From assembly GCA_003228405.1 (NCBI GenBank), contig QIDK01000136.1, forward strand, positions 1 to 44,182: 44,182 nucleotides of DNA. The letters are read 5' to 3'. Positions 2,013 through 28,583 of the stretch are shown here, in pieces. This stretch comes from Gammaproteobacteria bacterium (GTDB taxonomy: Bacteria > Pseudomonadota > Gammaproteobacteria > SZUA-229). Position 1 is the stretch's first letter. Every line of letters begins with the position of its first letter. Made by a program: the position numbers and the translations under genes. The notes below the pieces were generated by a model that saw only the letters and a program-made list of their open reading frames with translations, did not search any database and had not been told where the DNA came from.

Positions 2013-3680
2013 ATGAAATACATTAACGGTTTGCACTTTAATAATATTCGCGGCGATATTTATGGCGGCCTCACCGCTGCAGTTGTTGCACTTCCTCTGG
2101 CCATGGCAATGGGTGTCGCTTCAGGCGCTGACCCAATCGCGGGTATGTATGGGGCGATCTTTGTCGGTTTATTTGCCGCACTGTTTGGTGGCACCCCCGC
2201 TCAGATATCAGGGCCCACCGGCCCGATGACCGTGGTAATGGCAGCCATATTTATCCAGTACACGGCAATGTATCCTGATGATCCTGCACAGGGAGCTGCA
2301 ATTGCATTTACCGTTGTGATACTCGGTGGTCTGTTCCAGATTGTGTTTGGCCTGCTGAAATTTGGAAAATATATTGAGCTGGTGCCCCATCCCGTAGTAT
2401 CTGGCTTTATGACCGGCATTGGCGTCATTATAATTCTATTGCAATTCGGGCCATTGCTTGGGCATGCCGCTGACTCAAATCCGCTACAGGCGGCACAGTC
2501 CATACCTACATATATGAGTCAGATTGATAACCATTCATTAATACTCGGCATTATTGCACTTGCAATTGTTTACGGAGTGCCACTATTTATACCTAAGCTG
2601 GGCAAACTAATCCCCTCACCCCTGCTTGCGTTAGTGCTTGGCACACTCTGCTATGTACTTTTTTTTACTGCGGGCAGCACACCCATTATTGGCGATATAC
2701 CCACCGGCTTGCCAGAGTTGCGCTTACCCGTAATTGAACCCGCGTTGTTTTTAGACATGATTGCATCGGGTATGACACTGGCCGGTCTGGGCGCCATTGA
2801 TTCATTACTCACCTCACTGGTCGCAGATAATATAACCCGCACCCAGCATAAACCCGACCGTGAACTGATTGGCCAGGGCATTGGCAACACCTTTGCCGGT
2901 TTATTTGGCGGCCTGCCTGGCGCGGGTGCCACCATGCGTACCGTAGTAAATGTAAAGGCCGGTGGACGTACGCCGATTTCCGGCGCATTACACAGTCTTA
3001 TTTTATTACTGATTACACTTGGTGCAGGCGGCCTCGCCAGTGATATTCCCAAAGCTGTTCTGGCCGGTATTTTAATTAAGGTCGGCACAGATATTATCGA
3101 CTGGGATTACATAAAACGACTTAAAGATGCACCCAAAGCCGGCGTGTTTATTATGTTCACTGTACTCATTATTACCGTCACCGTAGACCTGCTACTCGCG
3201 TTTGCTGTGGGCATGATTATCGCCAGCTTTCTGTTTATGCAACGCATGACTGAATTGCAGATTAAAAATATGCGCCCCATAACAAGGCCTGGCACAGAGG
3301 TGCCATTAAACGATGAAGAAACAGAAATCATGCAGCAGGCGGATGGTAAAATATTACTCTTTCATCTGAGTGGCCCAATGAGCTTTTCATCTGCCAAGTC
3401 ACTGGTCAGATATCATGCCGGTATAGTAGATTACAGTATTATGCTACTGGACCTGACCGAAGTACCGGTAATTGATTTCACTGTAACCCGTGCACTCGAA
3501 GATATTATTTTAGACACCCTGGATGAGGGTCGAGAAATTTTACTGGTAGGCGCATGCAGTAAAGTACATAACATGCTGAAAAAGCAGAGAGTATTAAAAC
3601 TTTTTGACAATAAAAACATCTATAAGAAACGTATAGATGCATTAAAGCATGCACAAAATTCACTAAACTCCGCTCAATAA
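2013..3680 (+). CDS. SulP family anion transporter, BicA-like (probable bicarbonate transporter), with STAS domain
   Basis: N-terminus NNIRGDIYGGLTAAVVALPLA, plus GGTPAQISGPTGPM, GAIDSLLTS and GGLPGAGATMRT, typical of the BicA-like SulP clade. Substrate is inferred. Confidence 0.88.
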   Translation: MKYINGLHFNNIRGDIYGGLTAAVVALPLAMAMGVASGADPIAGMYGAIFVGLFAALFGGTPAQISGPTGPMTVVMAAIFIQYTAMYPDDPAQGAAIAFTVVILGGLFQIVFGLLKFGKYIELVPHPVVSGFMTGIGVIIILLQFGPLLGHAADSNPLQAAQSIPTYMSQIDNHSLILGIIALAIVYGVPLFIPKLGKLIPSPLLALVLGTLCYVLFFTAGSTPIIGDIPTGLPELRLPVIEPALFLDMIASGMTLAGLGAIDSLLTSLVADNITRTQHKPDRELIGQGIGNTFAGLFGGLPGAGATMRTVVNVKAGGRTPISGALHSLILLLITLGAGGLASDIPKAVLAGILIKVGTDIIDWDYIKRLKDAPKAGVFIMFTVLIITVTVDLLLAFAVGMIIASFLFMQRMTELQIKNMRPITRPGTEVPLNDEETEIMQQADGKILLFHLSGPMSFSSAKSLVRYHAGIVDYSIMLLDLTEVPVIDFTVTRALEDIILDTLDEGREILLVGACSKVHNMLKKQRVLKLFDNKNIYKKRIDALKHAQNSLNSAQ

Positions 3681-3729: not shown

Positions 3730-4686
3730 CTAGGAAGGTAAAAATTCTATAGGATAGGTTACCGTAATCTGCTCTACCTTCTTCGCACCAAACTTAAATT
3801 GCTTAATGCGGCTCAACAGTCGCCTTTCAAGATTAGGATCACCCAGCTCACTGGAAACAATTTTAACCCTGATAACATTGCCGCCTGGTGCAATGGTTAT
3901 CGCCAGTACAATCTTTCCTTTGATGCCGGGGTTCTTACGACGAGCTCGATTATATATTGAATATAATTTGCTCTTATTCTGATCAAATACTATTGTAATA
4001 TCTTCTTCTGCTCTCACACCACCACTTCGAGATTTGCTCCTGCGTTTTGCATCACGGCTATTACCTGCTGCATCTGATGATAATAGAGACTGTCTGACCA
4101 GCGTTATTTCACGTTGTGATAACTGCGTTTTACCAACAAGGCTTGCGTACTCGTCAGAGTTTACACCACCACTACCTTTGCTGGCACCAGCAGTTAACAG
4201 GTCTCTGTTATGTCCGGCTGCTCTGGTTGCGGAAGCTGAACTCGCTTTAACTTTTCCGCCCACCATAGCACTAACATCCGATGTATCCATTAAATCGGCA
4301 AGCTCATTACCCAATGCAAGCAGGCCTGAATCTGCTGCTTTTTGACGGGCTTTCTTTTGCGTTTTGGTTAATGGTTTCTGTTTATCTTTTTTCCTGGATA
4401 TTTTTTTTACTTTAGGTTTAGGTTTGGCTATGGGCTTGGGCTTTGGTTTAGGCTTAACGACTTTAGGCTTCGGTTTTTCTTTTTTCTCAAGTATAAAGTT
4501 TGCAATACGCTCAGGCACAACTGCTCGTGCTTCTCGATCAGGTTCAGGTACGTCAATAGATGACATCACAATTGCAAACAATAAAGAGACAGCAACAGTA
4601 ATGGCGGTGATGAGTTTGAATTTCGAATCACCTTTGCCTTCCGGGTGCCAGCCTAGTGCCAGCTGATCATAATAAGCCGTAGACAC
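3730..4686 (-). CDS. TonB-like energy transducer with AgmX/PglI-type (GltG-like) C-terminal domain
   Basis: Single N-terminal TM helix, KPKP-rich linker and C-terminal YNRARRKNPGIKGKIVLAITIAPGGNV...VTYPIEF; last gene of an exbB-exbD-exbD run. GTG start overlaps the upstream stop. Confidence 0.8.
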   Translation of the reverse strand: MSTAYYDQLALGWHPEGKGDSKFKLITAITVAVSLLFAIVMSSIDVPEPDREARAVVPERIANFILEKKEKPKPKVVKPKPKPKPIAKPKPKVKKISRKKDKQKPLTKTQKKARQKAADSGLLALGNELADLMDTSDVSAMVGGKVKASSASATRAAGHNRDLLTAGASKGSGGVNSDEYASLVGKTQLSQREITLVRQSLLSSDAAGNSRDAKRRSKSRSGGVRAEEDITIVFDQNKSKLYSIYNRARRKNPGIKGKIVLAITIAPGGNVIRVKIVSSELGDPNLERRLLSRIKQFKFGAKKVEQITVTYPIEFLPS

Positions 4687-5201
4687 TAGTTATTCTCTCC
4701 AGATGCTGCTTTTTGAATAGCAGCAAAGGCTATTTTAGTGTAATTAGCTTCACGACTGGTGGCTAAAATTTTTCTTAACAATTCATAGGGAATATTTTCA
4801 TCTCCCATAATGGTAACCGCTTTGCCCTTAACCTTACCATCTGGCCCCTTTACCACTCGACTTTTAGATGCCTGAAAAATTAATTCTTTTTCAAGGCCGG
4901 CAATAAGGGGTAAATCCTGCCGCATGACCTCGCTTATAATTGCGACTTCTCTGCCCTGCACCAGGATATTTCTGTGAGTCACAGAAATAATAATTGTCTC
5001 TTTCGGCGCTTTAGTTGCGATAGATGTAGGCAGATGAATATCTTTTTTCTTGGGTAACTGATGAACACTAGATGAACTTACCAGCAGGAAGAAAACCAGT
5101 ATGGTAAATATATCCATTAATGACACAAGATTTAAAGAAGGCTGTTTGCGTCGCGTATGGTGCCGCTCCATTCTCTTTGCACGACGTGATTTATTCATCA
5201 T
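4686..5201 (-). CDS. ExbD/TolR family protein (TM Asp retained)
   Basis: LNLVSLMDIFTILVFFLL TM motif; periplasmic IMGDENIPYELL motif. Confidence 0.88.
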   Translation of the reverse strand: MMNKSRRAKRMERHHTRRKQPSLNLVSLMDIFTILVFFLLVSSSSVHQLPKKKDIHLPTSIATKAPKETIIISVTHRNILVQGREVAIISEVMRQDLPLIAGLEKELIFQASKSRVVKGPDGKVKGKAVTIMGDENIPYELLRKILATSREANYTKIAFAAIQKAASGENN

Positions 5202-5749
5202 TTTGAAGTCACCTCGGCCTCTGTTGCTGGCGCAGCAGCTGCAGGATGGGTATCTTCTAACAGCTCAGGCGCATCTCCAATTGAGATATTTGGAAATAGC
5301 TCTACTGTTTCAACTTCAGTAATCTGCACTATATCTGCATAGCGAACCCGATCCATAATCATAATCAGGGTTTTGTAATTAACTTTAGGCTCGAGTAATA
5401 AGGTAATATTCTGTTCTTCAGGAAATCGCGATTTAATTTCAACGAGTACATCGGTAAAATATTTCCAGTTTGTATCGTCTTCAGATCGGGGGAAATATTT
5501 AATGCGACCCAGATTAGAGTCTCTAATTTCAAAACTGGTTTTACGCACAACGAGTTCTAGCTGTAGCTTAATTTTTTCTTCCTGTTTCGCAATTGCATTT
5601 TTAGAAGGTAAATTAAGTTCGAGCACAGTAACGCGAGAAAACACCGCCGTAATTAAAAGAAATGGGATTAAAATCACCATTAAATTTAGAAAAGCAGTGA
5701 TATTAAGTTCAACATCTTTGCTTATGTGTTTGCGCCTGACCAGTTTCAT
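5198..5749 (-). CDS. ExbD/TolR family protein (Asn in place of the conserved TM Asp)
   Basis: ELNITAFLNLMVILIPFLL TM motif; periplasmic LLEPKVNYKTLIMIMD motif. Confidence 0.85.
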   Translation of the reverse strand: MKLVRRKHISKDVELNITAFLNLMVILIPFLLITAVFSRVTVLELNLPSKNAIAKQEEKIKLQLELVVRKTSFEIRDSNLGRIKYFPRSEDDTNWKYFTDVLVEIKSRFPEEQNITLLLEPKVNYKTLIMIMDRVRYADIVQITEVETVELFPNISIGDAPELLEDTHPAAAAPATEAEVTSK

Positions 5750-5809
5750 TCCGTATCTCTTATTCTTTACTCTTACATGCTATAAATTAAGTCTGGAAAA
5801 TTTGTAAGA

Positions 5810-6427
5810 TTAGCTTTTAGTAATCAGATTTAAACACTTAACCGCCGCCATCTCGATATTATCTACCAGGCGTGCTGTTTTAGTGACGAGATAGGAATGT
5901 ATTAAAATAAGAGGTATTGCAGCAACCAGACCGAATGCAGTGGTATTCATGGCCACAGATATACTTGCAGATAGCAGGTCAGCTTTTTCAGCCGGATCAG
6001 CAGAGGCAACCGCTGTAAAGGCATCAATCAGACCAATAATAGTACCTAACAGCCCAAGTAAAGTTGCAATATTGGCATAGGTCGCCAGATAGTGAGTTCT
6101 CTCCTCAAGTTCTGGCATAACCTCCATCATGCCTTCTTCCATTGCAGATTCGATACTCTCACGAGGTGAATTTGAATGTTTACGGGCAAAACCGTAATTT
6201 AGCATGGTGGCTAATGGCGTTTTAACCGTTTCTGTTAATTTCATGGCACGGGAATAATCTTCCGCTTTTAGCATAGGCACCAGCTGCTCCCATACCTTTT
6301 TTGTTCTGCCCTGTGTTTTGGTGATATAAAGAAATCGCTCAATCGCGATGGCAAGGCCAACCGCCAGTACCAGCAGGATGATATACATAAACACACCACC
6401 ATCTTGAAAAAAACCAACAAAACCCAT
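5810..6427 (-). CDS. MotA/TolQ/ExbB proton channel protein
   Basis: GGVFMY...IAIER first TM; ANIATLLGLLGTIIGLIDAF and ISVAMNTTAFGL channel motifs. Confidence 0.93.
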   Translation of the reverse strand: MGFVGFFQDGGVFMYIILLVLAVGLAIAIERFLYITKTQGRTKKVWEQLVPMLKAEDYSRAMKLTETVKTPLATMLNYGFARKHSNSPRESIESAMEEGMMEVMPELEERTHYLATYANIATLLGLLGTIIGLIDAFTAVASADPAEKADLLSASISVAMNTTAFGLVAAIPLILIHSYLVTKTARLVDNIEMAAVKCLNLITKS

Positions 6428-6514
6428 GAGAATCCCCTATGAAATCAAATTTTCGTAATTCTATAGACTTTTATAGAATCAGCAAACTATTAATTAACGA
6501 TTGCCCGCAATTAC

Positions 6515-6530
6515 TGCAAATTTTGCACCA
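6515..6530 (-). promoter_or_regulatory. Candidate sigma-54 (-24/-12) promoter for the exbB-exbD-exbD-tonB module
   Basis: Minus strand reads TGGTGCAAAATTTGCA, an exact fit to TGGYRYR-N4-TTGCW, about 90 nt upstream of the exbB ATG. Confidence 0.55.
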
Positions 6531-6625
6531 CAGACAAAGCAGGCTATTGAATGTCTGTGGGTAATGATAGCCGAAAGATCTTAATCACCGCGAAGTATCA
6601 TGCATATTACAGTAATAAATATCTT

Positions 6626-6883
6626 TTATTTCTCATCTACATCCGTATTTTTAAAAAATGCGATGGTTTTCATAAAAACAGATGATTCTTCTGTATCGAC
6701 AGCTGTTTTTTCCTCAGTCTCTTCACCTGCCGCCTCAGATTTGCTACCATTGAACTCTTCATCGATTTTATCAATTATAATTTTTCGTTGCGATCGATAC
6801 TCATCAAAGCGGATGTGATTCTGATAATAATCTTTTGACAGGTCTCTCAGTTTTGCAGAGTAGCTTATATCACTCATTATCAT
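6626..6883 (-). CDS. Small hypothetical T6SS-associated protein, SHOCT-like N-terminal helix pair and acidic tail
   Basis: Start overlaps the ppkA stop (TAATG). LRDLSKDYYQNHIRFDEYRSQRKIII resembles the SHOCT pattern by eye only. Confidence 0.6.
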   Translation of the reverse strand: MIMSDISYSAKLRDLSKDYYQNHIRFDEYRSQRKIIIDKIDEEFNGSKSEAAGEETEEKTAVDTEESSVFMKTIAFFKNTDVDEK

Positions 6884-9609
6884 TACCTCAGTTCCCTCAA
6901 CACTCTAAAACCGGTTGCATAATCAGCTAAACCATTATGGCTGTTTGTGGTTGTTATATCACAATCATCCATAGTTTGCTTAAATGAACCGCCTACAGCA
7001 ACCAGCTTACGACCTTTGCCATAAACCCATTCCTGCACATTACCTACGTAGTTGACAAGTCCCCAGCCATTTTGCTTGCCAATATTGACATGTACCAGTT
7101 TGCCGCCTTTCTGAATACCGCGGGTGCTTAATTGACAGTTTCTATTTGCATCCAGTTTTTTACGCCTGGATTTGGCCGCATACAGCCATTCATTTTTAGT
7201 CGGTAAACGGTATTTCTGCCCTGATTGTCTACTTAACCATTTCAGATATGATTTAACGACTTTAAAGGTCAGTTCGGATGCAGGCAACTGAGTATTGCGC
7301 CCACTCATTAATTTACAACTTGATGATTTTTTACAGAACTTGTTTAACTCATTAATAGATACTTCATATTTGCCAATGGCGAAGGTTTTTATTTTATTAT
7401 TTCCCGGCACTACCACGAGAACGGGGCCACTTCCTGCTTCCTTTATTTTATCTTTACATACTGCCCGCTTGCCACGCGCCCCAAGCCCCGCAAGTGATTT
7501 ATCACAGGGATCTCGAGACTTAATCTGTATCGCCGCAAGTACTTTATTCGATTTAAATATACGCAGGCTGTGCTTTTTAGCTTCACGCGCGCGTTCAGGA
7601 AAGGCTTTTCCTGTTTGTGTAATGCAACTGGCTAATGAATTAACAAGTTTCTTTTTTAAAGCTTTATATCGGCCAGGATCAAGATCTCTTAATTTATCAA
7701 TAGCGGTTTCAAAATTGCGCATATTAAGACGCCCCTGACACTTCAGTTGATTATTTGCATTACTCAATGCAACATCAAATAACGAAATCTCTTTTTGCTT
7801 TGCAGTTAATTTCTTATTATTGGTCTGCATCCTTTTTTGTCTGGCCAGCATATTAGCCTGATCCTTTTTAGCCTGCTGTGCCTGTTTATCCTTGTTTCTC
7901 TGAATAGCGAATGCTATATCCTTTATTTTAAGATCCAGTGCGTCATGATCATCTGTATATCGCCTGGCATTTTCAATTAAATGTTTCGCCTTCGTGTATT
8001 TATAACTGCTTGTCGCAACGGATATTTCTTTTAAGTACAATTTATAAATAAATGCTTTCTGATCATCTACCCAGGGGTCTTCGCCCTTTGTTAAGACCAG
8101 CAGGTCTGAAACGTCTTTCCAGGTTGAATCTTGCCAGGGGTCAGTAAAAGTCGGCTTTTCTAATAGTGATTTCAAATCTTCTTTATAAAAATCAATGCGT
8201 ATTTTTAACTCCAGCTCAGTGCGTATATCAAATTCAGAATAAGGGTCTATTGGCCTTTCCTGAATAAACAAAAAATACCCTGTGATAACAACAGATAGTA
8301 ATAAAGCAAACACGGTGGCTAGTCGATTTGTTGTTTTAAGACTGGGCGATATAGCTTCAATAAACTTTTCAACACTTTCAATTCTATCTTCACGCCTGAA
8401 AGAAATTGCTTTTTCAATTGCTTTCCATTGATACTTTTTTATATTAGAAATTCGTTTTGGTTTTAGTTTTTGTCTTTCCGCCTCATCAGCTGGAACCTTG
8501 TTATAAGGGTGAGAACCTGTAAATAATTCATAAGCTACACAACCAAGCGCATAAATATCATCACGTATATCAGGTTCTTCTCCTTCCAGCATTTCAAGGC
8601 TGGCATAGGCTGGGGTTAACGCGCCTAAATTACCCGCATCGAATACGGTTTTATCCTCTGGATTATCTTCCATGTGCTCAACCTGTGACACCGCACGTGC
8701 GATACCAAAATCAAATACTTTAGCCAGCCCTCTTTGGGTTACAAATACATTGCCCGGTTTAAAATCAGAATGAATGATTTTTTCTGCATGTGCATGAGAC
8801 AGGGCAGAAGACATTCCTTTTATTATTTCCCATGCATCGTCAGTGGGTAGCCCGGTTGATTTATATTGCCTGATCAACTGATCTAGAGGATGACCATCCA
8901 TAAATTCCATGGTCATAAAAACCGTATCTCCATCACGGTCGAAATCGAAAACATTCACGATATTAGGATGGGCGATTCGCTGGGATTTTCTTGATTCTCG
9001 CTGTAAAGAAATAAAGGCTTCAGGGTGTGCTTTAAATTCTTCACTTAAAACTTTTATGGCAACATAAGGGTCTCGATCCTGGGCTTCTACCTTAAGCAGA
9101 TCTTTCGCTTTATATACTATACCCATACCACCCGCACCAATGACGCTCTCAAGTACAAAGCGTTCTTTTAAAATGCCATGCTCACCTACTTCTACAGACG
9201 AAGCTAAAAACTGCCCTGTAGATAATGATGGCTCCACCTGGCCTGGCATTTCACTGGTGTTAGCGGCCTGTGGAATTCGGGTTTTATCTTCAGGCGGTGT
9301 TACTACAGGTTTAAACCGGGTAACATCTGGCGCAGGATTTATATTTTTAGCGGGTGCGATTCTGGTTTTGTCTTCTGCTATATTAGTCTGTGCTTCAGGC
9401 ACGGGTATGCGGGTTTTATCCGCTTGCGCCTGAGTGCGGCCCTGAAGCTCTGAAATTTCCTTTCTGGCAGCGGCTAATCGCGTTTTTTCCTCATCGGTAT
9501 TCTGATTATCAGGTCTTTTTGAAGGTGCAATACGTGTTGGATCTTCAGAGCCTGGTACGTTTGATACGGGGGATTTAATTCTGGTTTTATCTGAGTCTTT
9601 ATCACTCAT
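6883..9609 (-). CDS. ppkA: T6SS Ser/Thr kinase PpkA with TM helix and C-terminal FGE-sulfatase (TagR-like) domain
   Basis: Hanks motifs IGAGGMGIVY, VAIK, HSDFKPGN, DFG and TPAYAS; TM LATVFALLLSVVITGYFLF; FGE motifs KYEVS, YRLPTKNEWLYAA, NGWGL..YVGNVQEW and GFRV. Confidence 0.9.
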   Translation of the reverse strand: MSDKDSDKTRIKSPVSNVPGSEDPTRIAPSKRPDNQNTDEEKTRLAAARKEISELQGRTQAQADKTRIPVPEAQTNIAEDKTRIAPAKNINPAPDVTRFKPVVTPPEDKTRIPQAANTSEMPGQVEPSLSTGQFLASSVEVGEHGILKERFVLESVIGAGGMGIVYKAKDLLKVEAQDRDPYVAIKVLSEEFKAHPEAFISLQRESRKSQRIAHPNIVNVFDFDRDGDTVFMTMEFMDGHPLDQLIRQYKSTGLPTDDAWEIIKGMSSALSHAHAEKIIHSDFKPGNVFVTQRGLAKVFDFGIARAVSQVEHMEDNPEDKTVFDAGNLGALTPAYASLEMLEGEEPDIRDDIYALGCVAYELFTGSHPYNKVPADEAERQKLKPKRISNIKKYQWKAIEKAISFRREDRIESVEKFIEAISPSLKTTNRLATVFALLLSVVITGYFLFIQERPIDPYSEFDIRTELELKIRIDFYKEDLKSLLEKPTFTDPWQDSTWKDVSDLLVLTKGEDPWVDDQKAFIYKLYLKEISVATSSYKYTKAKHLIENARRYTDDHDALDLKIKDIAFAIQRNKDKQAQQAKKDQANMLARQKRMQTNNKKLTAKQKEISLFDVALSNANNQLKCQGRLNMRNFETAIDKLRDLDPGRYKALKKKLVNSLASCITQTGKAFPERAREAKKHSLRIFKSNKVLAAIQIKSRDPCDKSLAGLGARGKRAVCKDKIKEAGSGPVLVVVPGNNKIKTFAIGKYEVSINELNKFCKKSSSCKLMSGRNTQLPASELTFKVVKSYLKWLSRQSGQKYRLPTKNEWLYAAKSRRKKLDANRNCQLSTRGIQKGGKLVHVNIGKQNGWGLVNYVGNVQEWVYGKGRKLVAVGGSFKQTMDDCDITTTNSHNGLADYATGFRVLRELR

Positions 9610-9615
9610 ATTGAA

Positions 9616-10398
9616 TCACACTACTTCTGCTGTTACTTGATTTGAATATGCTGCATCGGGTTCGCCTTTTACCAGTATCACTGACACATTATCATTGGCA
9701 CCATTATCCAGTGCTTTTTGAATTAATGAGTCTACCGCTTCTTTTAAAGGTAAGCTGGCTAATGCCTGAGCCATTTCTTCCATAGATACCATGTTGTAAA
9801 GGCCGTCACTGCAAAGCAAAAATGTGTCTCCCAGTTGAACACTGAATACATTTATATCAATATACACTTCCGGGCTTGCACCAATGGCCCGAGTAATGAC
9901 ATTTGAATCTGGATGAACTTCTGCTTCTTCGGGGGTTAAAAAACCTTGCTGAACGAGTTCTTCTACCTGGCTATGGTCACGAGATAATTGTATAAAATCA
10001 CCATTTCGAAAACGATATAAACGAGAATCTCCTGCCCACAGACAAATACCCACATGGCCTTTTATGGCTAAACTTACAACGGTGCTACCCAGTGTTCGGC
10101 CATCGAGCATTATATCTGCATACTCAAGTATGCGGTGATTCACATCAATTAAACTGTCTTCAATACTATCTATAAATTCATTCAGTGATGATTTATTGGT
10201 AATCTCCTGTAGAGATTTTACGATCATATTGCTGGCAACATTACCCGCCTCATAACCACCCATACCATCAGCCACCGCCCACAGTTGTACCTCAGGTAGT
10301 GAAATAATTGAGTCTTCATTCACTTCTCTGACCATGCCCACATTGGTATCTTCTACTGAACTCCAACGAATAGGGCGTCTGATCGTTGTATCACTCAT
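9616..10398 (-). CDS. pppA: PP2C-family Ser/Thr phosphatase PppA
   Basis: RE.NED, VADGMGG, GDSRLY, DHS, LLCSDGL and DNVS motifs; sits between tagF and ppkA. Confidence 0.92.
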   Translation of the reverse strand: MSDTTIRRPIRWSSVEDTNVGMVREVNEDSIISLPEVQLWAVADGMGGYEAGNVASNMIVKSLQEITNKSSLNEFIDSIEDSLIDVNHRILEYADIMLDGRTLGSTVVSLAIKGHVGICLWAGDSRLYRFRNGDFIQLSRDHSQVEELVQQGFLTPEEAEVHPDSNVITRAIGASPEVYIDINVFSVQLGDTFLLCSDGLYNMVSMEEMAQALASLPLKEAVDSLIQKALDNGANDNVSVILVKGEPDAAYSNQVTAEVV

Positions 10399-10414: not shown

Positions 10415-11140
10415 TTAAATTTGTTGTATATTGTATGGTATTTTCCAGTCACGCTGTTGCCACTGGCCATCCAGCATCGATGCTATGCCACCGATTGGGG
10501 GTAAACCCTGACAGCTAAATAACATAGGGCTAATTAATTGTGAGCCAGATGTTTGCCATAAACTAAAGCTGGATAAACCGGATGTTAAAACGGCATTAAG
10601 CATATAGGGTAATACCGTTTGCATATGGCCATTGGCAGAATTAAGGCCAAACAGCATTGGCCCCATTTCGCCTAAATTAAAAGTGGCCTGATAACTTTCA
10701 GAAGACAGTAATTCAATATCATTTACCGCAGCTATCAGTGCATCAGCATCAATACTGCCGTCTAAAGCAGATAGACATTGTGACTCCAGAGCATCAAACC
10801 ATTCGTTGCTATCCAGCATAAACTTGACTGGATTTACACCAGAATCAAAGGGTTTTACCAGACTAATGGGAAAATATCGGCCCACTCTGTCTACACTTGG
10901 CATCATTAAGCCGGCCCACATATTGCTGTCAATAACGCCGGGAGACAGAACAAACCGCCAGATAGGGCTGGTTAAATATATGTCTAACCAGTCATCCCCC
11001 ATCTGCTCCTGTGAACCTGCAATAAAATGCTGTAACCATTCATCCCAGGGTGTAATAAATGATGAATTTAAATTACGGAAAATAAAATCACCATATGCTG
11101 GCAATTTGCCATAAAGCCCTACTTTTAAATCAGAATTCAT
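10415..11140 (-). CDS. tagF: T6SS-associated protein TagF
   Basis: GLYGKLPAYGDF, WDEWL, PIWRF and PSVDRVGRYFP motifs. Confidence 0.93.
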   Translation of the reverse strand: MNSDLKVGLYGKLPAYGDFIFRNLNSSFITPWDEWLQHFIAGSQEQMGDDWLDIYLTSPIWRFVLSPGVIDSNMWAGLMMPSVDRVGRYFPISLVKPFDSGVNPVKFMLDSNEWFDALESQCLSALDGSIDADALIAAVNDIELLSSESYQATFNLGEMGPMLFGLNSANGHMQTVLPYMLNAVLTSGLSSFSLWQTSGSQLISPMLFSCQGLPPIGGIASMLDGQWQQRDWKIPYNIQQI

Positions 11141-11164: not shown

Positions 11165-14100
11165 TTAAATTGAAGCAGGACACCTGAAAGCGCCCAATAA
11201 ATTTTGACTAAATGGATTATTGACGCTTTTAGCCTTAATCAAATATTTGATACTGTGTACATTCTGCCTCTTATTACCCGCCTGTTCTGCAACACTATAG
11301 GTGACCAGGTAAACATTAGATTTTCTGGTTTTTGTTATCTTTGATCTATCCTGCAACTTGAACCAGGCCCAGGGCCCATCAAAAGATTTTTCATAACGAT
11401 CTTCATTAAGATCTTCAAAAACAATACGCACCCGTTTGTTTTCATCTTCACCAGACCAGTTTAAATCTTTCCAGAACTTAGGACCATGATTATAGCTTAT
11501 ACGCTGGCTGCCTACCTCAAGTAAAAAGCGGGCATCTTGTTTCTCCATGCGATAGGGTTTTAACTGAAAGGAAACACTGGGTACTTCCGGGTTCTTTCTA
11601 AAAAATACATTTTTAATTGTTTGCGCACGTCGAATCTGCTTCAGTGTAGATGTGCTTAAACCAAGTGAATAGTTATCGACAACCCGATTAGACCAGCCTT
11701 TTCGGGTATTCACAAAAGGCTTTACCAGCTCGGTATAAAATTTATCCATTGTACCCTGAGGTTTAAAAAACTCACTAAAATCAAATAGCGCCAGTTCATC
11801 GCTCGATGAACGCTTCAGCGGGTAACGTCCGGCCAAAGCCTGTGTATATGAGCTGTGAACCTGATTCTTCCATTCGCTATTCACATACCGGTGAGCAGAA
11901 GACAGTATTATTTTCCATGTTTCATCAGAAATTGATATCAACCAGCGCTTAACAGGGGCAGGTGTTTTCCTTGAAAAGCTACGCAATGATGTGATTGCAT
12001 TCCCTGCACCGCTTAAATAACGCGCCCTGGCAATCTGATATGCCTGTTTATCAGGATCAGGAGCGACTGAAATTTCGCCGAGAAAATCCTGTAACTGCTG
12101 GATTTTCTGCACAATTGAGGTGATAGGTGCCGGCTTTTTAGAGCTTTCTCTCAACAGTACATTTAAATCTCTAAATTGCTGATCAACTTTAGTGCCTTTA
12201 AATTTATTGGCCATAAAACCGGTTACCGAGCCCATTTTTCCTTCACCATGATCATCATTCATATTCTGTAACAGTTGTGATGATAACTGGGTGTTATTTG
12301 CACTCACCTGTAAGATAGAAAGTAAGGGTGAATAAACCGGGTCAGTAAAACTGGCCAGCACTTCTGTAGCCTGTTTAATGCTCTTAAATTCAGAAATTTT
12401 TAGTGAACGGAAAACTTTTTTCCAGTTAGAAATATAATCCGCCATATACAGGCTTTTTACTCTTTCACTTATTTCGCTTAAATCTTCTTTAACGAAGTCC
12501 ACTCTGGCATTTTCATCATCTGATAATACCCAGCGCTCATTAACAATGTCGGCTATGACAGCAGAGTCTGTGGACAGGTCAATATTGTCATAACCTTCTT
12601 TAGTGAACATATAGGGAACAAGTAACGAGCGTTCAGTAGACGGCGTTATAACATAAGCATCACGCACTGCTTCACCAAACATATTGAGCACATCGATTCT
12701 CTGGTTAAACTCAGGCTTAGTTCTAATGCGACTATAGATACGTTTATGAACCGGCACACGCATTAAAGTATTTCGTGTTTGCTTTACAATCCGGCTATTA
12801 AGCTGTGATGGTTTTAACTCGAGATTTAATAATGCCTCAAGATGTAATTCCAGTTCCTTGCGGCGTGATGCTTCACCCTGCATGTTTTGCGTCCAGTCTG
12901 TAATGAACCAGTCTGAGATTAGTTGCTTATCCATATAATCAGTTTTATTGAACATGAGATACGTTCTAAAGCTGCTGTATAAATCACCGCCCTGATGACC
13001 TTTCTGAATTTGCTTTTCCAGGTAATTAATAATGCGGGGTAAAAACAGTTCTTTTAACTGTGCTGCGTAGGCATTGTTTGCTGAATCATCAACATTACCA
13101 TCATATAAACCCAAACTCGATAACCAGGGATGTTCATTCTGATCATAAACAATACTGGCTTTAGCTAATGAATTTAATGTAGGCAGAACAACTCTGATGT
13201 CTTTATTCCATGCACTAAGGCGTTTGTTTTCTGCATTGAACTCAGCAATATAAGTTTCAACCTCAGACATATATATATTATGCTGGCCAATACTACCTGC
13301 CCAAACCGTTAACAAACCGATAGTCAATAATGCAATACCCGCATAGGCAGAACGTTGCGCCCATTTTATTAATATTTCAAATTTACGGTTTGACCCCACC
13401 AGCTCAGATTCAGGAAAAATAACTTCGCGAAACAGATTACCTAAAAAGAAACTTTTACCCTGGCCCTGCTGTAGCTGAACGTTTTCCCGGCTAAAACCAA
13501 AGTTGGATGACACAGATGACATCATCCGATCAATGGGGGTACCGTCCTGAGTACCACTGGTGAAATAGATACCACGTAAATACGGTTGAAACTGAAATCT
13601 GTTTTTGACAAAAGTTTGTTTAACAAAACTATCAATAACCGATTTAAGGTTTTCAATCTGCTGTGGAAAACCCTGAATGGCTGCGCGTCGCTTTACATCA
13701 CGCTCAGTATGTATGCGCGACAATTCTCTTGAATAAAGTCGTTCCAGCAGTTTCTGGTATTCAGAATCTAGATATTCAAAATCCGGGCTTTGTGTCGGTT
13801 TAGGTGCATTAGGCAGTGTAGTGCCCCAGACCTGCTCCCGCTCTTCTTTACTTAAATCTTCAAAATACTCACTGAAACCAGACACTAAATCGGCCTTGGT
13901 GAACATCAGGTAAATAGGAAAACGTATTTCGAGCTTTTCCATTAACTCATCAACACGGGTTCTTATGGTTTTTGCATGCAGTACCCGCTCTTCTTCTGTT
14001 TGCAGCAGAAGGTCGTGAATACTAATAGCAATGATGGCGCCGTTAATTGGGCGGCGACGTCTATTTTTCTTAAGTAATCGCAGAAAGCCTTCCCACGCAT

Positions 14101-14716
14101 TACTGTCGACCACTTTATGGCTATCCTGAGTTGTGTAGCGGCCTGCCGTATCGATTAACACGGCTTCATTAGTAAACCACCAGTCACAGTTTCGAGTACC
14201 GCCAATGCCCTGTAATGCGCCTTTTCCAAACTGTTCTGCTAATGGAAAATCCAGGCTTGAGTTAACTAATGCGGTTGTTTTACCTGAGCCTGGCGGGCCG
14301 ATAATGATATACCAGGGTAATTCATATAATGCCTTTTTACTGCCCTTACCTTTAAACTTTAATTTTTTAAGCGTTGATAAGGCTTCAGTGAATCGTTGAT
14401 TCATCTGATGTATTTCTTCTGACGATTGATCTGATGATCCATCGAGCACTAATGATTCCTGATTTTCCTCTAAGTCACCGAGGAGTTCATCATTGTGCTT
14501 TTTATTCATCAGTTGAGTGCGTAAGTTATTCAGACCCCATAAAATAGCCAGAATAATAATAGCAACCAGCCGAGCAACGGCACTACCTAAAGGTGCTGTA
14601 TTATCTTCACCAAACTTTATCATGGGCCCGATAAACCAGACAATAATTGAAAGTGCCAGTAAGCCGATAAGCGATATAACGACTGGATTTTTAAAAAATT
14701 CTATAATTTTTTTCAT
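11165..14716 (-). CDS. tssM: T6SS membrane complex subunit TssM (IcmF)
   Basis: Two N-terminal TMs, YELPWYIIIGPPGSGKTT, TRNCDWWF, IDTAGRY, RGIYFTSGTQ, third TM, GRYP and GPWAWF; 1183 aa. Confidence 0.96.
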   Translation of the reverse strand: MKKIIEFFKNPVVISLIGLLALSIIVWFIGPMIKFGEDNTAPLGSAVARLVAIIILAILWGLNNLRTQLMNKKHNDELLGDLEENQESLVLDGSSDQSSEEIHQMNQRFTEALSTLKKLKFKGKGSKKALYELPWYIIIGPPGSGKTTALVNSSLDFPLAEQFGKGALQGIGGTRNCDWWFTNEAVLIDTAGRYTTQDSHKVVDSNAWEGFLRLLKKNRRRRPINGAIIAISIHDLLLQTEEERVLHAKTIRTRVDELMEKLEIRFPIYLMFTKADLVSGFSEYFEDLSKEEREQVWGTTLPNAPKPTQSPDFEYLDSEYQKLLERLYSRELSRIHTERDVKRRAAIQGFPQQIENLKSVIDSFVKQTFVKNRFQFQPYLRGIYFTSGTQDGTPIDRMMSSVSSNFGFSRENVQLQQGQGKSFFLGNLFREVIFPESELVGSNRKFEILIKWAQRSAYAGIALLTIGLLTVWAGSIGQHNIYMSEVETYIAEFNAENKRLSAWNKDIRVVLPTLNSLAKASIVYDQNEHPWLSSLGLYDGNVDDSANNAYAAQLKELFLPRIINYLEKQIQKGHQGGDLYSSFRTYLMFNKTDYMDKQLISDWFITDWTQNMQGEASRRKELELHLEALLNLELKPSQLNSRIVKQTRNTLMRVPVHKRIYSRIRTKPEFNQRIDVLNMFGEAVRDAYVITPSTERSLLVPYMFTKEGYDNIDLSTDSAVIADIVNERWVLSDDENARVDFVKEDLSEISERVKSLYMADYISNWKKVFRSLKISEFKSIKQATEVLASFTDPVYSPLLSILQVSANNTQLSSQLLQNMNDDHGEGKMGSVTGFMANKFKGTKVDQQFRDLNVLLRESSKKPAPITSIVQKIQQLQDFLGEISVAPDPDKQAYQIARARYLSGAGNAITSLRSFSRKTPAPVKRWLISISDETWKIILSSAHRYVNSEWKNQVHSSYTQALAGRYPLKRSSSDELALFDFSEFFKPQGTMDKFYTELVKPFVNTRKGWSNRVVDNYSLGLSTSTLKQIRRAQTIKNVFFRKNPEVPSVSFQLKPYRMEKQDARFLLEVGSQRISYNHGPKFWKDLNWSGEDENKRVRIVFEDLNEDRYEKSFDGPWAWFKLQDRSKITKTRKSNVYLVTYSVAEQAGNKRQNVHSIKYLIKAKSVNNPFSQNLLGAFRCPASI

Positions 14717-14783: not shown

Positions 14784-15743
14784 TTATCTTTCAGGTGTTT
14801 TACGGGCAACAGTGCGCATGTCCGTAATTTCATCCAGCTGCTCAACAACCGGTGATGACGACTCATAAAGCCATACTCTAAAGCCTGAATAACTAAGAAA
14901 CAGAATTGCGCCGACAATACTGGCGATAACCCACATTGGTATGTAGTTCGCCAGTGAATTTCTGCTTTTACCCAGACCCTGCCAGCTGGGTGACAGGGAG
15001 CGTTCATATTCTCCTCGCTGACGGCGTATAACGGTGAATAAATCATCACGCATTTGTTCTATCATATCCCGACCGCGGTGAATAACACGGTACTTGCCCT
15101 CGAAGCCCAGGCTTAATAATATATACATAAGCTCAAGAATATATAAATTTTCAGCTGGTTGCTCTTTCATGCGATCAAGAATAAGAAAAAACTTTTCTCC
15201 ACCTGATGTCTCATTATGAAAAACACTTAATAAGGTTCTTTGCGGCCATGCGCTTTCACTACCCCAGGGCGTATTGAGCACTGCTTCATCAAGTGCCACA
15301 CAGACTGCATAACGTGCAGATAATACGATCTCAGGCTTTATACCTGTTTCTTTAGCTTTGCTTTCAAAGGCTTTAATTTCACTGACCAGGCGTTGATACA
15401 AACCACCCACATCAGGATGTGAAACTGAGACACGGGTTTTTTCAAATACAGCAATCAGGGTAGAGGCAGCATTAACTAAGGGATTAAGCCCGCTTGTAGT
15501 ATTAAAATAAGCGTTAGCAGAACCCTGCACTGGCTGCGCCTGCGACTGAGCCTGATAGGCTGGAGCGGCGGGTTGATGGGCTGCGGGTTGCTGAATTGGA
15601 GGCTGCTGAACCGGTGGCTGCAGTGGCTGCGCAGGGGGTTGCTGTGCACCACCCCGGCCGCCAGGCATTGGCCTGATTACGGTTCTATCTCCATCAACAG
15701 ATGGCTGTTTAAAAACTGTCTTGTCAGATTCATCTGATGACAT
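14784..15743 (-). CDS. tssL: T6SS TssL (DotU), C-terminal TM and no OmpA domain
   Basis: NPLVNAA, ARYAVCVALDEAVLNTPWG, HNETSGGEKFF and LGFEGKY motifs. Start moved to ATG 15743 because GGAG precedes it; the ORF track starts at 15779. Confidence 0.93.
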   Translation of the reverse strand: MSSDESDKTVFKQPSVDGDRTVIRPMPGGRGGAQQPPAQPLQPPVQQPPIQQPAAHQPAAPAYQAQSQAQPVQGSANAYFNTTSGLNPLVNAASTLIAVFEKTRVSVSHPDVGGLYQRLVSEIKAFESKAKETGIKPEIVLSARYAVCVALDEAVLNTPWGSESAWPQRTLLSVFHNETSGGEKFFLILDRMKEQPAENLYILELMYILLSLGFEGKYRVIHRGRDMIEQMRDDLFTVIRRQRGEYERSLSPSWQGLGKSRNSLANYIPMWVIASIVGAILFLSYSGFRVWLYESSSPVVEQLDEITDMRTVARKTPER

Positions 15744-15889
15744 AAGTGCTCCGAATATAAATGCCTGAGGCATTTTCAAAAATAGCTCTATTTAAGAAAC
15801 CACTGACCTAAGCAGAGGTGTCCTGATTTTAATCTGTTATAAAGTGACTGTCATGCTGATGACAGTGAATAATCTTTTAACGCAATCAC

Positions 15890-17224
15890 CTACTGTCGAA
15901 TTGCCCAGAACTCAATTTCAAGTCCCGGAAAATCACCACCAATATGCAATGCAAAACCGCCAGAGTGCTTTAACTCATTCCAGAAATCACTCTGCTTTTC
16001 CAGTTCAAAATAAGTATATCCAGAATGAAAAGGAATTTGGCGCGGTGCAACCGGCAGTGGCTTTATACCAATACCCGGCATAGCCGCATTTACTAATTGG
16101 CGGATTCGTTCAACAGGCCCAATTTTAATCTGCGCGGGTAAATGTGTACGCAATGCTTCTTCGGGTACATCTGCACGAACAGATAGTATAAACATCGCTG
16201 AACCAATAAGAGATCTATCGGGAATTTCTGCAACGCGTATGCCGTATTTTTTCTCAACCAGATTGAGTGAAACAGCCGTTTGCTCATAAACCATACTGAG
16301 GCAGTTTCTCAGCTCACTGATAACCGGAGTGAAGGTTGCCTGTAAATTATCATGCAGATAAACAGGAAATGTGGGGGTACGTTTATTTTTACTCACAAAC
16401 GTGGAAAGCTCACCGATCATCTGCACTGATTCAGCAAAAAGATCGACCGGGTGCAAACCATTCATATTAGAAAGATGATTTGTCATGGGTTCTATTCGAT
16501 TAATTAGCTGCAGCATCATATAGTCAGCAACTTCTGCTGTGCCACCTCGATTAGTATCAGCCAGGCGCCCGGCTATTGCTTCGCCTCTGTGATGCAGGAG
16601 GCCGATAACTTCGGTTAAATAACCCGCCAGTTTGGGCGATTTTTTACAATCCAGACAGGTTGCAATATAGTTATCATCAAGTAAAACATTTTTGTCTTCT
16701 CTTGATTCTGCAATACGAATCAGGCCAATACAGGCATAGCCACTTAGATCATCTGATTCCAGCATCAGCCGAAAACGCAGTTTGCCTACGTTCAGGGTAA
16801 TATTATCTCCCGACTCATTAGACACATCACGGCTTTCCTGCTCGAAGCTGTAATATCGCGCCAGCCCCTGTGTGTTTTCCTGTTCTATTACATCAACAGC
16901 GCCGGGGCGTTTAACGGGTACGCACACATAGACAATGCTGTTATGGGTGTTTTCAGGCACTTCAAAAACCGGTGGCGGCTCATCAACATCCGGAAAACTA
17001 AAGGGGGTACCATCAGGAAAAACGCCCTTACCTTTAGTAACCGAAATTTTACCCAGAGTGAGTAACTGCTGGTCTATTTCAAAATCATGCATGCCCCAAC
17101 CGTAAGCACCATATGCAGAGCATTTACCTTCTAACAGACGTTCAAAATAACGCTCCTGTTGCTGAAAATGCTGTGGATTCAGAAACATGCCTTCTGACCA
17201 GACAACTTTACTATTTAATGACAT
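15890..17224 (-). CDS. tssK: T6SS baseplate subunit TssK
   Basis: KVVWSEGMFLNPQHFQQQ start; PVAPRQIPFH..YTYFEL and FWAIR end. Confidence 0.96.
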   Translation of the reverse strand: MSLNSKVVWSEGMFLNPQHFQQQERYFERLLEGKCSAYGAYGWGMHDFEIDQQLLTLGKISVTKGKGVFPDGTPFSFPDVDEPPPVFEVPENTHNSIVYVCVPVKRPGAVDVIEQENTQGLARYYSFEQESRDVSNESGDNITLNVGKLRFRLMLESDDLSGYACIGLIRIAESREDKNVLLDDNYIATCLDCKKSPKLAGYLTEVIGLLHHRGEAIAGRLADTNRGGTAEVADYMMLQLINRIEPMTNHLSNMNGLHPVDLFAESVQMIGELSTFVSKNKRTPTFPVYLHDNLQATFTPVISELRNCLSMVYEQTAVSLNLVEKKYGIRVAEIPDRSLIGSAMFILSVRADVPEEALRTHLPAQIKIGPVERIRQLVNAAMPGIGIKPLPVAPRQIPFHSGYTYFELEKQSDFWNELKHSGGFALHIGGDFPGLEIEFWAIRQ

Positions 17225-17367: not shown

Positions 17368-17961
17368 TCATAATGGTTTCTTTACTTTATCAGCTGCTTT
17401 CTGGGTTTTATCCAGGCTGTCTTTTGACCCCTTAAAATCAAAGCCATCATCAACCTCTTCGTTAACTTTTTCGTCAAAAATCAGCCTGTTTCCAGACACC
17501 CGAATAACAACCGAATTTCTGAACACATTATTTGCAACAACAGGAATTATCAGTTTATATTTTGCACCTTTAAACTCCAGGAACTCGCCATAAAGTGCAA
17601 CATAACGGGTTTTTTTGTCTAAAACAAAACGCTCTGTACGACTCTCGCCTGGTTTAAAATGTTTTATTTTATGAACTGTAATCATGTCAGCGCCCAGCAC
17701 TTCTTTATCACGTTCATAAATTTCAATGAAGTCCGCTTTCTGCATCATTTTTCTGGCTTTTAATTCATACATTCGAATAAATAACGGCGATGCCTTACCC
17801 AGTTCATCCGGATTGATATCAGCATCTATTATATATTTAATCTGTAAATCAGTATCCAGGCCAAAATAGCCTCCTACTGTACCATTCATTGACTGACAGG
17901 CAGCAAGCCCCACTAAAAGCACTGCAATCACTGTTGCTTTAAAAAGTTGTAATTGTTTCAT
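17368..17961 (-). CDS. tssJ: T6SS outer-membrane lipoprotein TssJ
   Basis: Signal peptide MKQLQLFKATVIAVLLVGLAA-C (lipobox), then DINPD...SPL..RMYEL and PGE. Start moved to ATG 17961. Confidence 0.9.
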   Translation of the reverse strand: MKQLQLFKATVIAVLLVGLAACQSMNGTVGGYFGLDTDLQIKYIIDADINPDELGKASPLFIRMYELKARKMMQKADFIEIYERDKEVLGADMITVHKIKHFKPGESRTERFVLDKKTRYVALYGEFLEFKGAKYKLIIPVVANNVFRNSVVIRVSGNRLIFDEKVNEEVDDGFDFKGSKDSLDKTQKAADKVKKPL

Positions 17962-17971
17962 AAGAGCCCTA

Positions 17972-21068: not shown

Positions 21069-21098
21069 TAAATTTTTACTTTTAAAGAGGACTAAGCT

Positions 21099-21620
21099 AT
21101 GTCTGAAAGTATTCATGACAAGTTAAAACGTGTAAGAAAGCCCCGTGTTCATATTACCTATGATGTAGAAACAAATGGAGCCGTGCAAAACAAAGAAATC
21201 CCGTTCGTAATGGGAGTAATGGGTGATTATTCCGGTGATAATACCGAAACTAAAAAAGCCCTGAAAGATCGCAAGTTTTCACAGGTTGATCGCGATAACT
21301 TCAATGAGGTCATGAATAATGTCGCCCCCCAGGTGAATATGAAAGTTGAAAACACCCTGGAAGGTGATGGCAGCGAGATGTCGGTTGAGCTTGGCTTTAA
21401 AAACATGGAAGACTTTGAACCACAGAATATTGTAGAAAAAGTTGACCCCCTTAAAAAACTGATGGAAACGCGCAACAAACTACGTGACCTGCTAACCAAG
21501 GCTGATCGCTCTGAAGATCTGGAAAATTTACTGGAAGAAGTTTTGAGCAACTCAGATGCTCTTAGCTCTTTACAGGGTGAGCTAGGCACAGATGACGACA
21601 AAGAAGGTGACAAGAAATGA
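21099..21620 (+). CDS. tssB: T6SS sheath small subunit TssB
   Basis: [26 protein letters not shown] and DRDNFN motifs. Confidence 0.97.
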
Positions 21621-23107: not shown

Positions 23108-23128
23108 TGCGGCGCACTGTTAGTGAAT

Positions 23129-23168
23129 AAAAAGAAACCGTATCTAATGTAGATGCGGTTTCTTTTTT
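23129..23168 (+). terminator. Intrinsic terminator after tssC1 (potentially bidirectional)
   Basis: AAGAAACCGTATCTA-ATG-TAGATGCGGTTTCTT stem with a T-tract after it and an A-tract before it. Confidence 0.8.
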
Positions 23169-23240
23169 ATTTTATCTGTCATCCTGCTATTTAAGCTCCT
23201 TCACAATCACCCAGCCAGATAACAATAACCGAGCAAGTAA

Positions 23241-24737: not shown

Positions 24738-24867
24738 TTTATATAAAGTACTTCGCATAAAGCACTTAACTAATATAAAATTATACTGCTGTCATGCCTG
24801 CTAAGTCAGGAATATTTAGCAAGCGGAGCAGCTGTTATGAAATTACTAATATTTTGACTGGAAATAA

Positions 24868-28272: not shown

Positions 28273-28310
28273 ATACACAGCGTGTTTTGTAACACAGGGA
28301 AAATTAATCA

Positions 28311-28498: not shown

Positions 28499-28583
28499 TT
28501 ATTTTTAATAAACGCCCGAATTAATACATTAAAACGCAATTTAGCACACAAAATATTTAGATAACAGAGCGAAGGAAACCATT

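Follow-up and report, generated by a model that had tools for sequence, protein, structure and literature searches.

Control over the firing of type VI secretion systems (T6SSs) is understood in detail for few models, and the best studied of these, TagQRST-PpkA, has an energy-consuming part that is unexplained. A stretch of 44,182 nucleotides (nt) from a gammaproteobacterium of the lineage SZUA-229 (assembly GCA_003228405.1, contig QIDK01000136.1, positions 1 to 44,182; hereafter the window) raises the question of what a motor of the ExbB-ExbD-ExbD-TonB type does at the end of a T6SS gene cluster. The four motor genes are co-oriented open reading frames (ORFs) on the minus strand located exactly at 3730-6427, and Pfam places them in the ExbB, ExbD, ExbD and TonB_C families, as an initial annotation of the window had read them. 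Its statement that the motor follows the last T6SS gene after about 200 nt is also borne out: the distance is 198 nt from orf85, a small gene whose start overlaps the ppkA stop. Judged by gene order and descent, the motor and a set of tetratricopeptide repeat (TPR) proteins are a conserved accessory module of one type of T6SS cluster, the one regulated by Fha, PpkA, PppA and TagF, together with orf85 and a PpkA that carries an FGE domain. The motor genes probably encode the inner-membrane half of an Agl/Glt core-complex relative that is dedicated to the T6SS and acts as an envelope sensor, powered by the proton-motive force (PMF) and controlling PpkA.

Linkage of the motor to the T6SS and to a TPR set

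Orthologs of the TonB-like arm (at least 57% identity) are present in 12 genomes among 61 relatives. All six same-genus genomes with an ortholog show orf85-PpkA-PppA-TagF-TssM directly upstream of exbB, and the motor is convergent with clpV of the orthologous T6SS in three further genera of the family. A broader survey, in which one genome per species was scanned on the basis of an alignment of ten ortholog arms, yielded 63 loci from close relatives, each considered with 10-kb flanks. The colinear order TssM-TagF-PppA-PpkA-(orf85)-ExbB-ExbD-ExbD-TonB is found in 40 loci, a motor embedded between PpkA and TssA on one strand in two (L115, L118), a convergent motor at the ClpV end in three, and PpkA plus motor beside a divergent TPR set in one (L096). 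Six loci harbor a TPR operon upstream and no T6SS, and the remaining 11 are cut by contig ends, stand alone or share the domain only (two Polyangia loci). Linkage to T6SS core genes is seen in 45 of the 63 loci, 42 on the ppkA/tssM side and three at the ClpV end, and in 8/8 mapped clusters; of all adjacencies, ppkA-(orf85)-exbB is the tightest and the most widespread (43/63 loci). The record labels of the T6SS-linked loci name at least eight orders (Cellvibrionales, Thiotrichales, Thiohalomonadales, Kangiellales, Alteromonadales, Chromatiales, Oceanospirillales and Tenderiales), with 22 unclassified, and their ExbB proteins are 69-95% identical. This neighbourhood survey, set beforehand as the check on the proposed T6SS association, came out in its favour: the T6SS-linked orthologs form one clade, and on these gene orders the linkage of motor and T6SS is not a chance event. 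A similar picture emerges from the 97 genomes of the order to which the window belongs. The T6SS-type motor occurs in 15 of them, of which 11 carry a full PpkA-FGE gene and two a partial one at contig ends; among the other 82 genomes, PpkA-FGE was met in three only: G119, where the contig end cuts the motor, G035, on a contig of 2 kb, and G149, as a distant match.

The initial annotation had described the motor as stand-alone, without TPR partners. This holds locally, as Pfam reveals no genes for TonB-dependent receptors, TolB/Pal, TPR or beta-barrel proteins beside the four motor genes in the window flanks; it does not hold for the cluster type, which includes a co-evolving TPR set that lies on contig C54 in this genome. 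Seven distant whole clusters were mapped, from Aliikangiella marina, Cellvibrio sp., a Cellvibrionaceae metagenome-assembled genome (MAG), Colwellia echini, Teredinibacter sp., a Kangiella MAG and a MAG with the embedded form. In 7/7, the genes P469-TPR940-TPR206-P77 directly follow ClpV at the end of the other arm. The order on the motor side reads TonB<ExbDb<ExbDa<ExbB<(orf85)<PpkA<PppA<TagF<TssM<TssL<TssK<TssJ<Fha and that on the other arm TssA>TssB>TssC>TssC2>TssE>TssF>TssG>ClpV>P469>TPR940>TPR206>P77, again in 7/7 each, and the mapped clusters leave no space for further genes in the stretches from Fha to PpkA and from TssA to ClpV. The TPR half consists of a secreted protein of 469 amino acids (aa), two TPR proteins (about 940 and 206 aa) whose signal sequences are lipoprotein-like, and a secreted 77-aa protein. 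A strand of P77, ELPKILYVVPW, may be a TonB-box-like partner for the C-terminal domain of the arm. TPR940 contains YbgF/CpoB-like and BamD-like TPR repeats (TIGR02795, 64-94 bits over several stretches), and the GltE model reaches E-values of 1e-3 to 7e-9 on the TPR proteins, under its cut-off.

A tblastn search of the own genome placed P469-TPR940 at the end of contig C54 (L130: 12008-16233). In same-genus genomes, P469 is located about 6 kb past ClpV in two cases, with four genes in between, and in a third the TPR set and the motor share a contig at a distance of about 69 kb. Orthologs of the C54-type TPR940, defined by 43-65% identity (paralogs show at most 39%), are present in 34/36 genomes with a T6SS-linked motor and in 0/2 with an unlinked one.

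The assembly (3.09 Mb, 283 contigs, 90.6% complete) encodes two further ExbB-ExbD-ExbD-TonB sets, on contigs C78 (L011: 4046-13057) and C62 (L012: 11201-21185), whose arms are 37-39% and whose ExbBs 57-59% identical to those of the window. Five genes precede each of the two motors; their products are a secreted protein (about 200 aa), a protein of about 650 aa, two TPR proteins that carry a lipoprotein-like signal sequence (one of 940-1066 aa, the other of about 200 aa) and another secreted protein (about 100 aa). The two clusters are unrelated to T6SS. The C62 arm measures 453 aa and has an extra N-terminal extension of about 135 aa before the transmembrane (TM) helix, presumably cytoplasmic, a form of about 450-476 aa that recurs in many relatives.

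A motor tree was calculated from concatenated ExbB, ExbDa, ExbDb and TonB (62 rows, 868 columns; quick IQ-TREE search with support from the Shimodaira-Hasegawa-like approximate likelihood ratio test, SH-aLRT, only); like the tree of TPR940, it was built without Myxococcus sequences. All T6SS-linked motors fall into one clade of 53 rows (SH-aLRT 98) that is nested within TPR-operon motors, with L101+L103, L112+L054, the C78 type and C62 as successive outgroups, all of them TPR-operon motors. The base of the T6SS clade, with three unlinked family members (L073, L074, L095), is not resolved. The TPR940 tree mirrors this topology: a T6SS-cluster clade of 12 rows (support 88) has L103 as its sister (100), followed by L112 and L054. 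L103 itself is a single operon, P469-TPR940-TPR200-P100-ExbB-ExbD-ExbD-TonB. The agreement of the trees and the intact operon of L103 indicate that both halves descend from one operon resembling the Agl/Glt core complex, which was split onto the two T6SS arms. Since each half abuts its arm and is co-directional with it, this arrangement would not be expected from one simple insertion of a two-armed island into the operon.

Two of the surveyed arrangements deserve a separate description. L096 (106-10966, on a complete MAG chromosome) is a compact unit in which PpkA-FGE and the motor are divergent from P469-TPR940-TPR206; pppA, tagF and orf85 are not alongside, TssC (51% identity) comes no nearer than about 17 kb, and the motor is followed by an ORF of 3160 aa. 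A TPR set of a third kind, exemplified by contig C99 (L131: 92-8734), stands beside a two-component system and DUF4266/DUF3570 genes. It is without a motor of its own in G004 (L061), and the contig ends at the expected motor place in G018 (L066) and in the own genome. This C99-type set was considered as the partner of the window motor and dropped, because the C54-type set co-occurs and co-evolves with the motor. Contigs break directly upstream of exbB or after TPR genes in L049, L051 and L053 (G016, G027 and G024), in L066 (G018:C40) and in the own C54 and C99; such breaks in several independent MAGs suggest a common assembly problem at these junctions, induced by repeats or paralogs.

Colinearity across at least eight named orders plus the embedded forms, the abutment and common direction of both halves with the T6SS arms, the congruent trees of the motor and the C54-type TPR protein and the co-occurrence of motor and PpkA-FGE in the order make it improbable that the motor belongs to an independent Glt-core-like envelope system, which merely travels with the T6SS island or was rearranged beside it and may serve the motor-less C99-type set in trans. 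Such a system would nevertheless fit the existence of the complete TPR+motor clusters on C78 and C62, the C99-type sets that are motor-less in G004 or beside a window-type motor in G023, and the motors unlinked to T6SS in G013, G018 and G023.

Motor proteins and PpkA

The four proteins (Table 1) are clear members of their Pfam families, and simple hydropathy predicts three TM helices for ExbB and one each for the two ExbDs and the arm. The genes are tightly packed, with overlaps of 4 bases between exbDa and exbDb and of 1 base between exbDb and tonB. The C-terminus of the arm is an AgmX/PglI domain (NF033768, 69.2 bits vs a cut-off of 40) and also matches TIGR01352 (43.5 vs 27.1). All NCBIfam equivalog models for ExbB, ExbD, TolQ, TolR, TonB, GltG and GltJ remain far under their cut-offs for the motor proteins; the arm scores 40 with the GltG model (cut-off 650) and 29.4 with the GltJ model (cut-off 450). 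As the ExbB, ExbD, TolQ and TolR equivalogs are missed by far, the ExbB-type protein and the two ExbDs are to be regarded as family members and not as orthologs of ExbB and ExbD.

Table 1. Positions of the motor genes, the neighbouring regulatory genes and the T6SS arms in the window, and segments of the arm and PpkA proteins
Feature	Position	Strand	Description
ExbB/TolQ/AglR-type proton channel subunit	5810-6427	-	205 aa; PF01618 MotA_ExbB, 100 bits vs cut-off 22.9
ExbDa	5198-5749	-	183 aa; PF02472 ExbD, 53.9 bits vs cut-off 25.4
ExbDb	4686-5201	-	171 aa; PF02472 ExbD, 61.7 bits vs cut-off 25.4
TonB-like arm	3730-4686	-	318 aa; PF03544 TonB_C, 27.6 bits vs cut-off 24.6
Arm, TM helix	residues 26-44		hydropathy; ITAITVAVSLLFAIVMSSI
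Arm, Lys/Pro-rich spacer	residues 68-100		after TM helix
Arm, conserved segment	residues 121-136		GLLALxxELxDLMDTS; alignment of 45 orthologs
Arm, C-terminal domain	residues 225-318		AgmX/PglI-type TonB domain
orf85	6626-6883	-	85 aa, small, acidic, unannotated; start overlaps ppkA stop
PpkA	6883-9609	-	908 aa; Ser/Thr kinase 153-397, TM helix 431-449; Pfam, hydropathy
PpkA, periplasmic part	residues 450-908		459 aa; eight invariant Cys; FGE-sulfatase (TagR-like) domain 737-863
PppA	9616-10398	-	T6SS arm; Pfam
TagF	10415-11140	-	T6SS arm; Pfam
TssM	11165-14716	-	T6SS arm; Pfam
TssL	14784-15779	-	T6SS arm; Pfam
TssK	15890-17224	-	T6SS arm; Pfam
TssJ	17368-18006	-	T6SS arm; Pfam
Fha	17972-19591	-	T6SS arm; Pfam
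Divergent T6SS arm	19962-31271	+	TssA, TssB, TssC, second TssC-like, TssE, TssF, TssG, ClpV (28584-31271); Pfam

The two ExbDs differ at the putative proton site. The TM helix of ExbDb holds a conserved Asp (LMDIF), present at this column in 62/62 aligned motors, and ExbDa has an Asn at the matching column in the same 62/62. This Asn/Asp pair is invariant also in the TPR-operon motors, which suggests that the stator is a fixed ExbD heterodimer with a single protonatable residue; it thereby offers a simple handle for a motor-dead point mutant.

Two parts only of an AlphaFold model of the arm, based on 45 orthologs, are confident: the TM helix and residues 225-318, the latter with a predicted local distance difference test value (pLDDT) of about 90. 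Foldseek matches the predicted C-terminal domain to solved C-terminal domains of TonB, HasB, FusB and TolA (e.g. 9dc4_T, root-mean-square deviation 1.9 across 71 columns). The TM helix of TonB carries a conserved His within an SHLS motif. In the arm, His is absent from the TM helix (26-44, ITAITVAVSLLFAIVMSSI). A cytoplasmic N-terminal motif of the arm (Y6, W13, F23) was tried as a T6SS-specific mark and rejected, being common to the paralogs from TPR operons; P15 alone is clade-specific.

The motor thus shares with TonB-ExbB-ExbD and TolQRA-Pal the stator families, a Pro/Lys-rich arm spanning the periplasm and the TonB/TolA C-terminal fold. It differs from both in having two distinct ExbD paralogs, with the Asp of the proton site confined to one of them, and in the arm helix without His. 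TonB-dependent receptor, TolB and Pal genes are not beside the motor, and no receptor gene was found in the window flanks or the eight mapped clusters, to which the receptor search was confined. That the genes form a dedicated Ton system energising the receptor-mediated uptake of a T6SS-secreted product, such as a metal-binding effector, is therefore very improbable: apart from the missing receptor gene, the arm is of the AgmX/PglI type, the motor nests among TPR-coupled motors and not among Ton systems, and the ExbB/ExbD equivalogs are far under cut-off. The TonB fold of the arm tip would suit such a role, and a precedent exists, as metal-binding effectors secreted by T6SSs are taken up via TonB-dependent transporters in the case of TseM/MnoT (PMC10482370).

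Adjacent to the motor, PpkA combines a kinase with an FGE-sulfatase domain in 42 of the 43 motor-adjacent cases, and the 43rd is split into two ORFs. Compared by sequence with solved structures, its periplasmic part gives weak FGE-fold matches only (PvdO, Treponema variable protein and ToxD, E about 1e-3). The cytoplasmic N-terminus (residues 1-140; 9190-9609) is composed of short repeats built on D-K-T-R-I, and DKT repeats appear in the consensus of 41 orthologs. The arm tip and the PpkA periplasmic domain display no similarity (BLASTP, best E 0.8). A complex prediction for PpkA 450-908 and arm 101-318, both given as alignments, scored 0.00; it was run without controls and has no bearing on binding.

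The small gene orf85 is matched by tblastn at the same place in 28 of the 43 loci with PpkA beside the motor. Its conserved N-terminal motif reads S-[FY]-S..LR.LS.DY....I.F.EYR..RK.IL..ID..[FY]NG, and the protein is presumably cytoplasmic because it lacks a TM helix. It belongs to no Pfam or NCBIfam family, and the ESM Atlas returns unnamed clusters only (0.87-0.88).

A putative PMF-powered sensor upstream of PpkA

From the observed gene content, domains, topology, linkage and co-phylogeny we infer what the module may do, how it would use the PMF, what it would contact and in which direction it would signal. The ExbB/ExbD stator would use the PMF to load the TonB-like arm, and the loaded arm would reach an outer-envelope assembly of TPR proteins and P77. 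Contact, envelope damage or load would then alter the connection between arm and TPR proteins and act on the PpkA periplasmic domain, PpkA would phosphorylate Fha, and T6SS assembly would be licensed at that time and place. The module may in this way be the functional counterpart of TagQRST, the ATP-powered sensor of the Pseudomonas H1-T6SS, with the PMF as its source of energy. The sensor reading is ranked first since the FGE domain, the lipoprotein-like TPR proteins and the energised inner-membrane complex are the same three ingredients as in TagQRST.

A 2026 study on the Pseudomonas H1-T6SS describes residues 127-359 of TagR as a member of the FGE-sulfatase superfamily, reports that membrane damage promotes a TagQ/TagR complex that binds the PpkA periplasmic domain, and states that the TagST ATPase is required, without a defined link to the other parts (PMC13713981). 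Like TagQRST, the motor/TPR module accompanies a T6SS regulated by Fha, PpkA, PppA and TagF, and both comprise an energy-consuming inner-membrane complex, lipoprotein-like (likely outer-membrane) proteins and a periplasmic domain of the FGE fold. In PAO1, the tagTSRQ genes presumably lie just after ppkA, the place that is taken by the motor here. The module differs from TagQRST in presumably drawing on the PMF (ExbB/ExbD) instead of ATP (TagST), in the fusion of the FGE domain to PpkA instead of a separate TagR, and in having TPR proteins for TagQ. A different energised machine occupies this position, and the clusters concerned bear the labels of many marine and soil gammaproteobacteria. According to the record labels, cultured isolates are among the carriers (Cellvibrio sp., Teredinibacter, Aliikangiella marina, Colwellia echini and Psychromonas).

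The second relationship is that with the Agl/Glt machinery. Luciano et al. (2011; PMC3169522) define a gammaproteobacterial 'core complex' of aglR, Q, S and gltD, E, G, C plus one extra gene, 'of unknown function', and the C78 and C62 clusters have this layout; type VI secretion is not mentioned in the main text of that article. The module shares with Agl/Glt one MotA/TolQ/ExbB-type and two ExbD/TolR-type subunits, a TonB-like transducer tipped by an AgmX/PglI domain, an additional small secreted protein and TPR proteins whose signal sequences are lipoprotein-like. The likeness to the Agl/Glt motor core claimed at the outset is upheld by the NF033768 match, the subunit set and the nesting among TPR-operon motors. 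Unlike in Agl/Glt, the genes lie apart at both distal ends of a T6SS cluster and come together with PpkA-FGE and orf85, the TPR partner genes are not beside the motor (they are on contig C54 here and after ClpV in relatives), and the GltG, GltJ and GltE equivalogs stay far under cut-off for the module proteins. Kin of the Agl/Glt-type machine form focal adhesions in gliding Myxococcus. Tentatively, and with less confidence than for a PMF-powered sensor as such, the whole trans-envelope machine may have been recruited by a T6SS lineage as a PMF-driven sensor of contact or load, which would perceive a touching neighbour or strain on the envelope and direct T6SS assembly to the site via the FGE domain of PpkA. 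If this is true, it would provide the first function for the gammaproteobacterial 'core complex', unexplained since 2011, and T6SS sensor modules would have arisen more than once from different energised envelope machines, the TagST ATP-binding cassette (ABC) complex and a Glt-like set. The module also links two fields, as one branch of Agl/Glt would become testable by T6SS read-outs such as Fha phosphorylation, sheath dynamics and killing.

The nearest alternative is a mechanical accessory for envelope maintenance, a Tol-Pal-like, PMF-driven trans-envelope tether without signalling to PpkA. It could anchor or position the TssJLM membrane complex, open or reseal peptidoglycan and outer membrane at the firing site, or shift the apparatus along the cell envelope. 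Force transmission through the envelope is known from related Agl/Glt machines (PMC3169522), TPR940 carries YbgF/CpoB-like and BamD-like repeats, and the arm tip resembles TolA domain III. We consider this alternative unlikely in view of the ppkA-(orf85)-exbB adjacency in 43/63 loci, which include L096 with its T6SS core at least 17 kb off, and of the periplasmic FGE domain found in 42 of the 43 motor-adjacent PpkAs (the 43rd being the split one).

Several observations weigh against a sensor that is dedicated to the T6SS and to PpkA. The motor is located at the ClpV end, away from ppkA, in three genomes, which would also suit a tether. Within the family of the window the motor changes its place: the G013 T6SS arm ends with PpkA-orf85 and has no motor within 8 kb, the motor being on another contig; in G018 and G013 the motor follows ubiH-like genes, and in G023 it follows a TPR set, DUF3570/DUF4266 genes and a small beta-barrel gene. 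A PpkA-FGE ortholog was not found in the motor-bearing G018 and G023 in the 97-genome survey of the order, nor was TssC found in G023, an 88% complete genome. As the T6SS-type motor of G023 (L048/L074) adjoins a C99-type TPR set, the motor may be shared between TPR sets. For the window itself, tblastn did not find TPR206 and P77 in the own assembly, and the TPR set does not adjoin ClpV. The likeness of the module to TagQRST is one of architecture. Two peptide motifs of the window clade served to retrieve the 63 loci, and many rows come from kin species; because the motifs are clade-specific, the survey samples the close relatives of the window arm and not all AgmX-type motors.

Transcription is a further point on this side. 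exbB is separated from ppkA by 456 nt and from orf85 by 198 nt (6428-6625). An alignment of seven same-genus loci shows that the 70 nt preceding the exbB ATG (6428-6497) are conserved and the distal part of the gap is variable. The conserved block, identified from this alignment only, holds a promoter-like TTGCTG-16-TAGAAT and the palindrome TCTATA-N6-TATAGA at 6460-6477; a consensus scan for promoters and terminators made no call within the gap on the minus strand. The RNA fold z-score of the gap is -1.9. Given the gap and the promoter-like block, a separate or additional transcription of the motor genes is possible.

The suggestion that this T6SS accessory is undescribed agrees with the literature searched. 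Full-text searches combining T6SS with motor and TPR terms, in journals outside subscription, found no description of the module. A 2026 review on T6SS accessory factors (PMC13584744) contains no mention of ExbB, ExbD, TonB, TolQ, proton motive, TPR, tetratricopeptide, Tol-Pal or gliding, and the 2023 review on T6SS regulation (PMC10482370) names TonB for the TonB-dependent transporter only. TonB, ExbB, ExbD, TolQ, MotA and TPR give no match in the main text of Boyer et al. (2009), the supplements of which list at least one COG0810 row, in a Yersinia locus.

Surroundings of the motor and the T6SS cluster

The two T6SS arms of the window diverge between Fha and TssA (Table 1). Where many clusters have hcp, there are tandem TssC/VipB-like sheath genes (496 and 498 aa; 21617-24737), an arrangement that recurs in 8/8 mapped clusters. 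hcp and vgrG are encoded apart from the cluster, on contig C50 of the same assembly (5379-7007), and the T6SS of this genome is complete with them.

The arm gene is followed downstream by a tandem pair of SulP/STAS sulfate-permease paralogs (35-1687 and 2013-3680), convergent with the motor operon. At the opposite end, clpV is followed by a low-GC stretch (31-36%) at 31749-34474 with four minus-strand ORFs, one of which consists of RHS repeat and RHS core fragments only. This region looks like a remnant of effector/immunity genes and stands at the place of the TPR set in relatives. Past clpV and the Rhs-like fragments, the window continues with lysC, alaS, recX and recA.

In the same-genus genome G011, the insertion of about 6 kb between clpV and P469 (L056: 11535-17453) comprises four genes without a Pfam family (689, 309, 351 and 581 aa). 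A homolog of the 309-aa gene (48% identity) is located just beyond the tonB-like gene in the Kangiella MAG (L144: about 51-730).

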